IMG/VR virus record: IMGVR_UViG_3300029517_000155
Location: 1 to 5,118 of that record
Source of the DNA: a virus
Lineage: Duplodnaviria; Heunggongvirae; Uroviricota; Caudoviricetes
Strand: one strand, 5' to 3'
Length of the DNA: 5,118 bases
The notes under the pieces are model-generated. The model ran no database searches and was not told the origin of the DNA. It saw only the letters and a program-made list of their open reading frames with translations. Made by a program: the position numbers and the translations under genes. Of the stretch, positions 1-5,118 are shown in pieces (within the stretch, counting starts at the first letter, position 1; each line of letters begins with the position of its first letter).

Positions 1-55
1 ACTTAAAGGTATTAAAAACAACTTTTTGTCTTTTTACCTTCCCGTTTCGCTCAAG
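1..55. other. host chromosomal flank, B' arm of an attB(lambda)-type site
   Basis: Reverse complement reads CTTGAGCGAAACGGGAAGG directly 3' of the lambda core, matching the B' arm of E. coli attB as I recall it (..CTGCTTTTTTATACTAACTTGAGCGAAACG..). Recalled, not searched. Confidence 0.6.
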
Positions 56-70
56 TTAGTATAAAAAAGC
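56..70 (-). other. lambda-type attachment site core (O) at an attR (P-O-B') junction
   Basis: Exact 15-mer TTAGTATAAAAAAGC on the + strand, the reverse complement of the lambda common core GCTTTTTTATACTAA. It has lambda P-arm-like sequence on one side and attB B'-like sequence on the other. Confidence 0.85.
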
Positions 71-212
71 TGAACGCGAAACATTAAAAACCATTAATAT
101 CAATGTGTTACAATATCTTTAGTCTAAAAAATAGACTACATAATGCTACAAAACACAACATATCCAGTCACTATGAATCAACTACTTAGATAGTATTAGT
201 GACCTGAGACAG
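71..212 (-). other. lambda attP P-arm-like region with Int arm-type binding sites
   Basis: Reverse complement closely resembles the lambda P arm (..caggtcactaatac.atctaagtagttgattcatagtgactggatatgttgtgtttt..cgtttc.cgttca-core). CAGTCACTAT at 165-174 is a perfect match to the arm-type consensus (P2-like), and the reverse complement of 195-206 is a P1-like site (caggtcactaat). Confidence 0.8.
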
Positions 213-257
213 AGCATTAGCGCAAGGTGATTTTTGTCTTCTTGCGCTACTTTTTTG
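213..257 (+). terminator. tI / sib-like intrinsic terminator hairpin downstream of att
   Basis: GCGCAAG (220-226) pairs with CTTGCGC (241-247) and the stem extends to about 10 bp via flanking TTA/TA(A/C); it is followed by TTTTTT (251-256). It lies about 160-190 bp from the att core on the P-arm side, where lambda tI/sib sits, and resembles the lambda tI sequence as I recall it. Confidence 0.6.
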
Positions 258-419
258 TTATCAAACATGTCGCACTCCAGAGAAGCACAAAGCCTTGCAA
301 TCCAGTGCAAAGATTTGTGTGCCTCAGTTTTGTCTAAGTGTTCTACTGAAAACATAGTAAAATCGGCAACAGCTGGAAATCATTCAATACTCGCACTATC
401 GAAAGTTCACCAGCCAACC

Positions 420-460
420 GCAGCACGTTCTTGCATACGACGTGCTGCGGTTTTCTTTAT
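420..460 (+). terminator. candidate rho-independent terminator
   Basis: Perfect 9-bp stem GCAGCACGT (420-428) / ACGTGCTGC (440-448) with an 11-nt loop, followed by GGTTTTCTTTAT. The T-tract is on the + strand only. Confidence 0.35.
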
Positions 461-609
461 GATTTATGCACAATGGACAATTTGAAATTATTGATGATTG
501 TATGGTGCATCGTTTTCTGAACCTACACTGATTTTTTGGTATAGCCTTGCCTAGCCAGTCTTACCGGATCAAACTCTTCGCTATTGCAATACTAACCAAA
601 ATCATCAAT

Positions 610-638
610 TTGACAGCGATTAACCAGAATAATAGTAT
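610..638 (+). promoter_or_regulatory. candidate sigma70 promoter for the diguanylate cyclase gene
   Basis: TTGACA (610-615), a 17-bp spacer, then TAGTAT (633-638). A (TA)n tract at 683-694 lies in the predicted leader, and the AGGTG Shine-Dalgarno at 701-705 is 5 nt before the ATG at 711. By eye only. Confidence 0.25.
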
Positions 639-710
639 ACTATCACCAGTAAGAAATTATCGTTATTTGTAGCGATACATATTATATATATATCATTCTC
701 AGGTGCGTAC

Positions 711-2042
711 ATGATTATCAACCAGGTACCTATAAAAATAAAAATCTTCATCTTTTTATTTTCATGCATCTCTATTATATTTTTGTTACTGCATGCAAAT
801 AATGGAATATACATAACACAAACAACACAAATAAGTTATAGTGTTTTCATTATTGGGCTTTTTTTCATAAACCTGATGATTTTTATTTTTCTATTGCTTT
901 ACTATGTTTCTAATCAGAGACAAAGTTATCTCTTAATTCTTTCATTCGCGTTTTTGAGCAACACGTATTATTTATTAGAAGTGGCTATTATTTCTTTATC
1001 TCCGTTAGGTAACGATTTATCTACAATCTATCAGAAATCAAATGATATCGCAATATATTATCTATTCCGTCAGTTCAGCTTTATATCTATAATCTTTCTG
1101 GCTGTTTATTCCACCAATGTTAAAAACAAAAGTGTTTTAGAAGATAAAAGAAACATAATAATTGTTGTTTTGTCAATATTAATTCTTTTTATTACTCCGT
1201 TTGTAGCAAAAAATCTAAGCAGTGACAATATAAAATATAGTCTTAATATTATACAATACTCGCTGAATCGTCATTTGCCGACGTGGAATATCGTGTACAC
1301 CAAAATAATATCAGTATTTTGGCTTGTATTACTTATCAGCTCATGCATCAGCATACGTAATTACTCAAAAATATGGTTGTGTATAATACTTATTAGTATA
1401 GTGTCAGTATGCAATAATCTAATTTTATTGTATTTTATTGATAAATCCCATCCTGCATGGTACATGACAAAATTTCTTGAATTGATATCAATGATTTATA
1501 TCATTTCAACACTCATGTATTATGTTTTCAGGAAATTAAATCATGCTAATCATATGGCAATTCATGATCCACTAACGAATACATACAATAGAAGATACTT
1601 TATTGACTCATTGAAGAATATATCAAAACACCATGATTTCTCAGTAATAATGTTAGATATTGACAATTTCAAAAGCATCAATGACAAATGGGGGCATCAT
1701 ATGGGTGATCAAGTCATAGTAATGGTTACCAGAATAATAAAAAAATCCATCAGGAAAGAGGATATATTAGGGCGCTTAGGCGGTGAGGAGTTCGGTATTA
1801 TCATTAAAGGTAATACTCAAAAGCTCTTGCTATCAATTGCAGAGCGAATCAGAAAAAACATTGAAGAGCAATGCTCGGAAAAATTATTATCGCATGGACC
1901 TGAGAAAATAACTGTCAGTATTGGTTGCTTTACTTCAAAAGAGAATAATCTCAGTCCATCTGAAATGTTAGTCAATGCCGATAAAGCGTTATATCAAGCC
2001 AAAAGAACCGGAAAAAACAAGGTGATAACTCACTCAAAATAA
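711..2042 (+). CDS. membrane-anchored diguanylate cyclase: about 8 predicted TM helices (MASE-like integral-membrane N-terminal domain) plus a C-terminal GGDEF domain; possibly DgcX-like
   Basis: 443-aa ORF with a good RBS. The first ~270 aa form about 8 hydrophobic stretches. The GGDEF domain starts at DPLTNTYNRRYF and carries an intact active-site GGEEF (nt 1779-1793) and an RxxD I-site (RKED, nt 1752-1763) five residues upstream. GC content is roughly 25-30 percent against about 50 percent in the flanking phage genes. Confidence 0.93.
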   Translation: MIINQVPIKIKIFIFLFSCISIIFLLLHANNGIYITQTTQISYSVFIIGLFFINLMIFIFLLLYYVSNQRQSYLLILSFAFLSNTYYLLEVAIISLSPLGNDLSTIYQKSNDIAIYYLFRQFSFISIIFLAVYSTNVKNKSVLEDKRNIIIVVLSILILFITPFVAKNLSSDNIKYSLNIIQYSLNRHLPTWNIVYTKIISVFWLVLLISSCISIRNYSKIWLCIILISIVSVCNNLILLYFIDKSHPAWYMTKFLELISMIYIISTLMYYVFRKLNHANHMAIHDPLTNTYNRRYFIDSLKNISKHHDFSVIMLDIDNFKSINDKWGHHMGDQVIVMVTRIIKKSIRKEDILGRLGGEEFGIIIKGNTQKLLLSIAERIRKNIEEQCSEKLLSHGPEKITVSIGCFTSKENNLSPSEMLVNADKALYQAKRTGKNKVITHSK

Positions 2043-2071
2043 ACACCTTTTTAAAATACAGCCCCAATAAA

Positions 2072-2104
2072 CTGCAGAATATTATCCCATATAATATCCT
2101 GCAG
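2072..2104. terminator. hairpin between convergent genes, possible bidirectional terminator
   Basis: CTGCAGAATATTAT (2072-2085) pairs with ATAATATCCTGCAG (2091-2104) at 13 of 14 positions around a 5-nt loop. It sits between the cyclase stop (2040-2042) and the minus-strand tfa remnant stop (2116-2118). The U-tract is weak on both strands. Confidence 0.35.
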
Positions 2105-2115
2105 TTCGTAATGCA

Positions 2116-2208
2116 CTATTCGATAATGGGTCCTGTTGGCCATTCAATATCCGGTGCAGTTGTTGTATTAACACGGTTCAGCAACACCCGATACTTCTTC
2201 CAGGCTTC
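2116..2208 (-). pseudogene. tail fibre assembly protein (lambda Tfa-like) C-terminal remnant
   Basis: Minus-strand translation [30 protein letters not shown]-stop is nearly identical to the lambda Tfa C-terminus as I recall it (..[32 protein letters not shown]). No N-terminal part is present, and it is in frame with the upstream pin remnant. Confidence 0.6.
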
Positions 2209-2442
2209 CACCACCAGCACGACAAGATGCCGCATACAGTGACCCAGTCAGTCCAGTTTCCAGACAACCAGTGCGTCACCTTTTTGAAGGCGCTTTAAAG
2301 CACGTTTTAATCCAGGTCGGCCTGTCCTTATTCCGCTTAATTTATCTTCAAATATTTGTTCACATCCTGCACAAACAAGAGCGTTTCGTTGCAGGTCTGT
2401 ATTCTGGTCATTTGTTGATACCCTTACATAGCCAATCAGCAC
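2209..2442 (-). pseudogene. serine DNA invertase (Pin/Gin/Cin/Hin family), N-terminal fragment with an in-frame stop
   Basis: From the GTG at 2442-2440 (GGGAG Shine-Dalgarno 7 nt upstream) it encodes (M)LIGYVRVSTNDQNTDLQRNALVCAGCEQIFEDKLSG.R..RPGLKRALKRLQKGD.LVVWKLD, matching the Pin N-terminus including the catalytic-serine motif YVRVSTNDQ. A TGA at 2248-2250 sits where Pin has Arg (KLD-R-LGRSM). Weak similarity continues ([12 protein letters not shown] vs LGRSMKHLISLV) and then switches to Tfa-like sequence, so the resolvase C-terminus and HTH are missing. Confidence 0.85.
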
Positions 2443-2496
2443 GCTGAATCTCCCGTCCAAAAGCACAAATCATGCCATGCAGGCCAGAAACCGCCA

Positions 2497-2522
2497 TTAT
2501 CTAAAACCTCGGTTTACAGGAA
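2497..2522. other. gix/pix-type 26-bp crossover site for a Gin/Pin invertase
   Basis: TTATCTAAAACCTCGGTTTACAGGAA has a reverse complement (TTCCTGTAAACC GA GGTTTTAGATAA) one mismatch from the Mu gix site as I recall it (TTCCTGTAAACCGAGGTTTTGGATAA). It is about 55 bp upstream of the pin start and exactly at the start of the tail-fibre variable-domain reading frame. Confidence 0.8.
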
Positions 2523-2723
2523 ACGGTAAATCAGGCTTCTGGCGCATTACAGAAAAACCAGAACGGCGCAGATATTCCGGGAAAAGATACCTTCACCAAA
2601 AACATTGGTGCCTGCCGCGCATATAGCGCATGGCTGAATATTGGTGGCGATAGTCAGGTCTGGACAACTGCGCAATTTATTTCGTGGCTGGAGAGTCAGG
2701 GGGCATTTAACCATCCTTACTGG

Positions 2724-3467
2724 ATGTGCAAAGGCTCATGGGCTTATGCAAATAATAAGGTTATTACAGATACAGGTTGCGGAAATATTTGTCTTGCAGG
2801 TGCTGTGGTGGAAGTTATTGGCACTCGCGGCGCAATGACCATACGCGTTACTACGCCGAGCACGTCCAGCGGTGGCGGAATTACTAACGCTCAATTCACT
2901 TATATTAATCATGGTGATGCTTACGCTCCTGGCTGGCGACGAGACTACAACACGAAAAACCAGCAGCCTGCATTTGCTTTAGGGCAAACAGGACGCAGGG
3001 TCACAAATGATAAAGCTGTTGGCTGGAACTGGAATAGCGGTGTTTATGATGCAGATATCAGTGGTGCATCGACATTAATCCTCCACTTCAATATGAATGC
3101 GGGGAGTTGCCCTGCTGTACAGTTCCGCGTGAATTACAGGAACGGCGGTATTTTTTATCGTTCAGCGCGTGATGGTTATGGCTTTGAAGCTAACTGGTCA
3201 GAGTTTTACACCACAACACGCAAACCCTCTGCGGGGGATGTTGGTGCATATACGCAGGCAGAATGTAACTCAAGGTTTATTACAGGTATTCGCCTTGGCG
3301 GTCTGTCATCTGTTCAGACATGGAAAGGCCCCGGCTGGTCTGACAGGTCAGGTTATGTCGTTACGGGTTCAGTTAACGGAAACCGTGATGAATTAATTGA
3401 TACAACTCAGGCAAGGCCAATTCAGTATTGCATTAATGGGACGTGGTATAACGCGGGGAGTATTTAA
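2724..3467 (+). CDS. phage side tail fibre protein, C-terminal variable (receptor-binding) segment; orphaned partial gene
   Basis: The open frame begins straight after the stop at 2502-2504, inside the pix site, and reads ..NQASGALQKNQNGADIPGKDTFTKNIGACRAYSAWLNIGGDSQVWTTAQF.. before the first ATG at 2724. This is typical of the variable C-terminal cassette of e14/Mu/P1-type invertible tail-fibre genes. There is no constant N-terminal part and no convincing RBS at 2724; the stop is directly followed by tfa. Confidence 0.75.
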   Translation: MCKGSWAYANNKVITDTGCGNICLAGAVVEVIGTRGAMTIRVTTPSTSSGGGITNAQFTYINHGDAYAPGWRRDYNTKNQQPAFALGQTGRRVTNDKAVGWNWNSGVYDADISGASTLILHFNMNAGSCPAVQFRVNYRNGGIFYRSARDGYGFEANWSEFYTTTRKPSAGDVGAYTQAECNSRFITGIRLGGLSSVQTWKGPGWSDRSGYVVTGSVNGNRDELIDTTQARPIQYCINGTWYNAGSI

Positions 3468-3469
3468 CG

Positions 3470-5118
<1,649 letters not shown>

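Follow-up and report, generated by a model that had tools for sequence, protein, structure and literature searches.

The 26-bp site at positions 2497–2522 of the window—the whole analyzed stretch of 5,118 nt—is very probably the gix site of a decayed Mu-type G segment: both its partner and its enzyme are lost, the local switch is dead, and the lone site is most likely inert. The feature is already known in kind: a phage host-range switch that is well understood has decayed in the ordinary way, and an apt annotation would be "gix remnant / gin pseudogene / S'v-U' remnant." The coordinates of the individual features are collected in Table 1.

Table 1. Features of the decayed G segment and its surroundings in the window
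Feature	Position	Strand	Details
tfa 3' end (lambdoid tail-fiber assembly)	2116–2213	−	approximately 33 codons and stop, fused to the invertase stub
Invertase remnant beyond the TGA (approximately 11 dead codons)	2214–2247	−	pin-like, run to the tfa junction
gin' (invertase 5' fragment)	2248–2442	−	GTG start at 2442, 64 codons, then TGA
Probable recombinational enhancer (putative Fis sites)	2293–2409	−	within the 5' coding region of gin'; inferred
gix, gin-proximal (equivalent to gixR)	2497–2522		two 12-bp half-sites around the core TC at 2509–2510
S'v, complete variable C-terminal tail-fiber cassette	2505–3467	+	320 codons and stop at 3465–3467
U', tail-fiber assembly chaperone	3470–3988	+	172 codons, Pfam Caudo_TAP
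Deletion junction 1, U'/J	3982–3985		GTTT microhomology
Lambda-type J internal fragment, 212 bp	3986–4192	−	lambda 17636–17847, 95% identical to lambda J
Lambda-type terminase large-subunit gene A fragment	4191–5118	−	lambda 951–1877, 97.6% identical

The crossover site and the invertase stub

The 26-mer at 2497–2522, TTATCTAAAACCTCGGTTTACAGGAA, is identical to the gin-proximal gix of phage D108, with 0 mismatches as judged by comparison with fetched reference loci, and differs from both Mu gix sites (gixL and gixR) by a single mismatch, a T for C at position 6. It features the architecture of Din-family sites, namely two imperfect 12-bp inverted half-sites around a 2-bp core, with TTATCTAAAACC as the outer and GGTTTACAGGAA as the inner half-site. 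On a generic consensus for crossover sites of the Din family (Gin/Cin/Pin/Hin), TTNTCNNAAACCNNGGTTTNNGANAA, which has 18 specified positions, the site scores 16/18; genuine sites of Mu, D108, and e14 score 15–17, the next best position in the window scores 13, and the maxima in shuffled sequence range from 11 to 14. A self-search of the window on either strand, allowing up to 3 mismatches, returns the 26-mer once, and a match occurs in 0 of 200 dinucleotide-preserving shuffles. The claim of a single 26-bp crossover site, made in the original prediction from the letters of the window, is thus borne out by the identity to the D108 site and by the shuffles.

A partner was sought in the window in two ways. 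No gix-like site lies within 9 mismatches of the 26-mer, and a search with up to 10 mismatches gives just two matches, both with 10; the generic consensus yields no second site in the 5.1-kb window above the level of shuffled sequence. The earlier statement that the window holds no second inverted site agrees with these searches, the next best matches having 10 mismatches and the consensus score staying at or below 13 elsewhere. A gix-like 26-mer with a TC/GA core would fit the pattern TTNTCNNAAACC-TC-GGTTTNNGANAA.

As judged by its sequence, 2497–2522 is a bona fide Gin-type gix and marks the end, on the gin side, of an invertible G segment of the Mu/D108 type. That the 26-mer is a chance likeness or mere tail-fiber coding sequence—and no recombination site—has next to no probability: its inner half-site and the next bases do encode the conserved tail-fiber residues NLGLQETV, but the 26-mer is identical to a functional phage site, holds the same place with respect to gin and S' that the site has in Mu and D108, was not matched in any shuffle, and is exactly where relatives are rearranged. 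The tail-fiber frame opens at the site, as had been predicted: a TAA at 2502–2504 falls into the outer half-site of gix, and the frame is open from 2505, inside gix. This TAA was considered as a disabling mutation and rejected; it is not a lesion because D108 carries the same base and because the outer half-site lies outside the invertible segment.

The invertase next to the site is a stub. It retains the catalytic Ser9 motif YVRVSTNDQ and is nearly identical to gin of Mu and D108 over 2252–2442 (191 nt), whereas codon 65 is a TGA in place of an Arg conserved in Gin and Pin (PinE). Pfam Resolvase matches gin' over profile positions 2–73 of 145 only, and the same 64-aa product is named "recombinase family protein" by RefSeq in the relatives. 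The last ~38 nt of the invertase remnant are pin-like and align to nt 171–236 of e14 pinE, not to gin; overall, the fragment is only 74% identical to pinE. The fusion to tfa is located at about codon 77, with a short TGG/CTGG run common to both sides. The tfa part is 99% identical to the end of the intact E24377A tfa and 93% identical to lambda tfa, and is annotated in the relatives as "tail fiber assembly protein, incomplete." No gene for a complete small serine invertase, which would combine a catalytic domain with helix E and a C-terminal HTH, adjoins the site in the window. As gin' has lost the rest of its catalytic domain along with helix E and the DNA-binding domain, it can give no active enzyme. 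Of the "truncated pin" in the original prediction, the truncation stands (64 codons, Resolvase positions 2–73 of 145); the assignment to pin does not, as the stub is mainly gin-like and pin-like only in its last ~38 nt. With one site and no enzyme in the window, there is no local inversion, and the prediction that the segment cannot invert is correct as far as the locus itself goes.

The 5' part of gin is also where the recombinational enhancer is expected. According to PMC3378877, the coding region of gin contains three Fis sites, about 550 bp upstream of where mom starts; set on the Mu annotation, these sites fall at about gin +115. The window retains gin +1 to +191, the putative enhancer-bearing part, almost unchanged compared with Mu. 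Loose matches to the Fis consensus at +53 and +101 are identical in the window, Mu, and D108, the consensus being too degenerate to discriminate. The enhancer is hence probably retained in the 5' region of gin'.

A further element is located on the tfa side: a 16-bp inverted repeat at 2070–2106 (94% complementary, 5-nt loop) lies between the stop of dgcX and the stop of tfa'. It is kept in the relatives and is not followed by a T run, so it was not called by the terminator scan.

The silent cassette and the deletions

On the other side of gix, S'v encodes a product with 309/320 aa identical to D108 S'v and a Pfam match to gp37_C; at the nucleotide level, S'v is 94–96% identical to the S' of Mu and D108. 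The chaperone U' matches D108 U' at 171/177 residues and lacks its last 5 codons (PEQPE), the new TGA being created by the deletion junction; U' of ETEC6 is full length. Taken as a whole, window 2252–3985 is 94–96% identical to gin-gixR-S'-U' of Mu, D108, and P88, and the records of these three phages annotate a "G-segment boundary" at the corresponding base. In a promoter scan of 1950–2750, one promoter-like match was obtained, below the expectation from shuffles. Without an N-terminal part and without an evident promoter, S'v can give no tail fiber. The paired cassettes of an invertible segment—Sv-U and S'v-U' arranged tail to tail and alternately joined to Sc—are not present, since Sv, U, and Sc are deleted. 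S'v-U' in the window is a silent copy next to gin with nothing left to join.

As judged by a BLAST map against fetched loci, window 1–2213 corresponds to the E. coli chromosome next to ybhB/bio, followed by tfa'. The AT-rich gene at 711–2042 (+), between ybhB and the prophage remnant, encodes a diguanylate cyclase of the DgcX type (MASE4-GGDEF). dgcX is known at attB-lambda beside lambdoid prophages (PMC4287979), and its position in the window is as described for O104:H4, ETEC, and other strains.

The far end of the cassette is defined by a comparison with ETEC6 (locus L007), a relative that keeps two sites: window 1–3985 equals L007 9001–12985, and window 3981–4192 equals L007 18247–18458. 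Hence, L007 12986–18246 is missing from the window, a loss of 5.26 kb that comprises the end of U', U, Sv, the partner gix, the constant part of stf, lom, and the 3' part of J. The ETEC6 partner gix, L007 14550–14575, falls within the deleted stretch. "Frozen," as the original prediction had called the segment, is right in that local inversion is impossible, and falls short of the actual loss: one half of the segment is gone, and with it went the partner gix, the constant N-terminal tail-fiber part, lom, and the 3' portion of J. As the two ends of the junction share only GTTT, the deletion is illegitimate and no site-specific event. An invertase-mediated deletion via a pseudo-site was considered separately and ruled out: the breakpoint features the 4-bp GTTT alone and no consensus match, the best consensus score nearby being 13/18 at 4057–4082, within the range of shuffles.

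The U'/J junction occurs in four independent gut-metagenome contigs (ENA) at 99.8–100% identity and is therefore real. Neither the window arrangement nor the U'/J junction occurs in 5,426 complete E. coli genomes, and an exact-junction scan of GTDB representatives and JGI metagenomes gave no match. A second junction joins the J stub to gene A with a 2-bp overlap; the gene A fragment matches Pfam GpA_ATPase and GpA_nuclease, and Pfam Ig_J_second is found in the fusion ORF that carries the J fragment. One contig with the U'/J junction, L023 (ENA ERZ1303571), aligns to the window only up to 4192 though it continues for another ~580 bp. This end of the match suggests that the U'/J deletion came first, the J/A junction being absent there.

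The two deletions have also generated a 383-codon chimeric ORF at 3954–5105 (−), in which the ATPase domain and the start of the nuclease domain of terminase A are in frame with the Ig-like piece of J. It extends 35 nt into the 3' end of U' and is probably an accidental fusion.

A history of the locus can be proposed along these lines. A lambdoid prophage resident at attB-lambda, next to dgcX, would have received a G segment as a graft onto its stf, and at the right-hand graft junction the invertase gene would have been broken off near codon 77 and continued by the end of the tfa already there. In the intact form, as seen in the relatives, an inverted gix pair brackets Sv-U and U'-S'v, and inversion joins either Sv or S'v to the constant part of stf. 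In the window, a 5.3-kb deletion at the 4-bp microhomology has removed the partner gix and all partners of S'v, and a second deletion has left the J stub fused to terminase gene A. The lone gix could still be bound by an invertase acting in trans, since the site and the adjacent probable enhancer region are intact in sequence.

Orientation of the segment in two-site relatives

Two inverted gix sites are kept in the relatives ETEC6, F1005, ES1, MB10, and others. The order in ETEC6 is dgcX, tfa', gin', gix(+), S'v, U', U, Sv, gix(−), lom, and J, with the gix pair at L007 11497–11522 (+) and 14550–14575 (−), the latter inside a long lambdoid stf. Sc in the relatives is the N-terminal part of a lambdoid Stf. 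A flipped query allele was built in silico by exchange at the ETEC6 gix cores. The flipped gin'-gix-Sv junction occurs in 127 genomes (100% coverage, 99.9% identity) and the window-like junction in 125. Among the 40 matches listed per orientation, the same gin'/tfa' junction is found in 29 flipped and 19 window-like loci, counted as loci covering at least 88% of the 4.1-kb two-site query. Nine loci, normalized for orientation, fall into two haplotype groups that are ~30 SNPs apart over 7.4 kb, and either group (A and B) holds both orientations. Since one gin'/tfa' truncation is present in all nine loci and both orientations occur in each group, at least two inversions are indicated after the loss of the invertase. 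The simplest cause for inversions of such gin-less two-site loci would be an invertase from elsewhere.

Two routes to both orientations do without an invertase in trans: flips that predate the truncation, combined with spread of the flank by homologous recombination, or RecA exchange at short inverted repeats. Such routes would fit three observations. The crossover in the flipped relatives can be placed only within the 25-bp stretch that is identical in both gix sites; in haplotype group B, the orientations differ by ~5 linked SNPs, with orientation tracking the sub-lineage in a small sample; and in the flipped strain ET76 (L020, L021, and L022) e14 is missing from icd and Rac from ttcA, while ydfJ is uninterrupted (no Qin), so that none of the three K-12 prophage positions holds an invertase. 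However, the gin'/tfa' junction and the TGA are identical in every locus, which argues for one truncation that predates groups A and B, and the flipped structure agrees exactly with the product expected from exchange at the gix cores, the in-silico allele being matched at 100% coverage. For RecA in particular, a 25-bp identity is at or below the usual minimum for exchange. Both routes are hence judged unlikely, and an invertase acting from another locus stays the preferred cause. The relatives thereby provide evidence from natural populations that a G segment without its own invertase flipped at least twice, in support of cross-prophage action of Din-family invertases, for which experiments recently gave proof with PinQ on e14. 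That gin-less G segments are polymorphic in orientation at the population level is a side result of modest weight, with nothing new in kind, and is of relevance for the annotation of prophage tail fibers and for interpreting orientation differences between assemblies.

The two orientations differ in the state of stf. In the window-like orientation, in which Sv is joined to the constant part, stf is annotated as broken (L007 14052–16442; L012 8564–11443; L016 and L018 9053–11443). In the flipped orientation, the same S'v cassette as in the window is joined and completes an intact stf ORF of 945 aa (L011, L013, L015, and L017 8606–11443). As stf is broken with Sv and intact with S'v, the defect lies in the Sv cassette or its junction.

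Further loci bear on the fate of the segment. ETEC O6:H16 M9682-C1 (L010 9001–12212) carries the same gin' and gix with the opposite lock: here gin' is adjoined by Sv and a clipped U, beyond which a deletion other than that of the window leads into J. Different lineages have thus locked opposite cassettes by independent deletions. H130 (2022S01-140) and H157 (2022S01-140-18) carry a related G segment in opposite orientations; their names suggest one strain lineage, and their chromosome lengths are near-identical. Their match starts past the gin'/tfa' junction, at query position 253. The opposite orientations of this pair suggest active switching. The Logan contigs L026 and L027, which are flipped with Sc joined to S'v, end at most 1 nt from the equivalent of window 3985; these ends are probably an assembly-graph branch where U' alleles diverge.

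Action in trans and comparison with known systems

In this invertase family, mismatched core dinucleotides block productive exchange. The commonest resident sites, the pix sites of e14, have TT/AA cores, not the TC found at 2509–2510. Wild-type invertases work in an enhancer-bound invertasome, within one supercoiled domain, and strongly favor inversion of nearby inverted sites over deletion (PMC2724282, PMC3798978). Invertases do act across prophages: PinQ and PinE invert the P segment of the e14 cryptic prophage in trans (PMC12529663). Among 5,426 complete E. coli genomes, 203 carry full-length gin-like genes and 1,179 carry full-length pinE-like genes.

Exchange at the lone gix needs a second TC-core site, inverted and in the same supercoiled domain, and the lone gix is therefore most likely inert. 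The original prediction had raised the opposite case, that a Pin/Gin-family invertase from another prophage uses the lone site, with deletions or inversions involving a distant site. Spelled out, a resident Gin, Cin, or Pin-family invertase would pair the lone gix with a distant gix-like site and produce large chromosomal inversions or, rarely, deletions. We consider this very unlikely. The intact sequence of gix and of the probable enhancer region, the flips in gin-less two-site relatives, the frequency of gin-like and pinE-like genes, and the precedent of PinQ are consistent with it; against it stand the absence of a partner from the window, the different cores of the e14 pix sites, and the demand of wild-type invertases for an enhancer and one supercoiled domain, with inversion favored. 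In addition, the four independent contigs that share this genotype are all colinear with the window across the lone gix and show no rearrangement there. That the lone gix joins rearrangements in its host at all is highly improbable, and inertness remains the preferred reading.

A more far-reaching idea is that gin-less G segments at dgcX/attB have been kept switching by unrelated invertases, resident or incoming, and are exploited by the host, with S'v-U' and gix of the window as a reserve cassette. There is little likelihood that this holds. If it did, S'v-U' could be re-engaged by an incoming phage or prophage of the Mu, D108, or P1 type that brings a TC-core gix and its own invertase, and the host could make use of the product as with PinQ/StfE2 on e14, for example in the form of a Stf-S'v chimera that blocks phage receptors.

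The G segment of Mu and D108, with Gin and gix, is the system that the window resembles most directly. The gix is identical to that of D108; the order and orientation of gin, gixR, S'v, and U' agree; the nucleotide identity amounts to 94–96% over 1.7 kb; the S' frame starts inside gix; and the presumed enhancer-bearing 5' part of gin is kept. In contrast to Mu and D108, the window lacks gixL, Sv, U, and Sc, its gin is cut to 64 translatable codons, and the element that carries it is a lambdoid prophage in decay at attB-lambda and no transposable Mu-like phage. As the window has neither a pair of sites nor a complete invertase nor two cassettes with a constant part, it holds a remnant of the Mu/D108 system and no working member of it.

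The P segment of e14 with PinE is likewise an invertible tail-fiber segment in a defective E. coli prophage; its invertases cross between prophages, both orientations occur in deposited genomes, and the last ~38 nt of the window's stub are pin-like. However, e14 keeps both pix sites and an intact pinE, its cassettes are unrelated to those of the window, and its pix cores are TT/AA versus TC. No defense function is implied for the window.

The shufflon of the IncI plasmid R64 is operated by the tyrosine recombinase Rci at 19-bp sfx repeats and comprises several invertible segments. It has only the general idea in common with the window, namely that a DNA rearrangement swaps the C terminus of an adhesin-like protein. 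The window, unlike R64, carries the stub of a serine recombinase (Pfam Resolvase), and its parent element had one pair of 26-bp gix sites; a single 26-bp gix and no family of sfx-type repeats is found. "Shufflon," the term chosen in the original prediction, is thus a misnomer for a serine-invertase G segment without Rci or sfx.

The remaining systems are the K-12 cryptic prophages Rac and Qin, in which we take pinR and pinQ, respectively, to lie beside tail-fiber genes with the invertase intact, and the Shigella boydii locus, which presumably carries pinB with an invertible B segment. To our knowledge, Rac and Qin have no invertible segment of their own. Like the window, these would be lambdoid or defective prophages with a gene of the Din invertase family by tail-fiber and tfa genes and with varied decay, a likeness that is one of description. 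Compared with Rac and Qin, the window presents the reverse: the site and the cassette are kept and the enzyme is lost. The study of PMC12529663 reports inversions only in e14. The P1 record notes a 93% identity of the C segment to the Shigella pinB locus.
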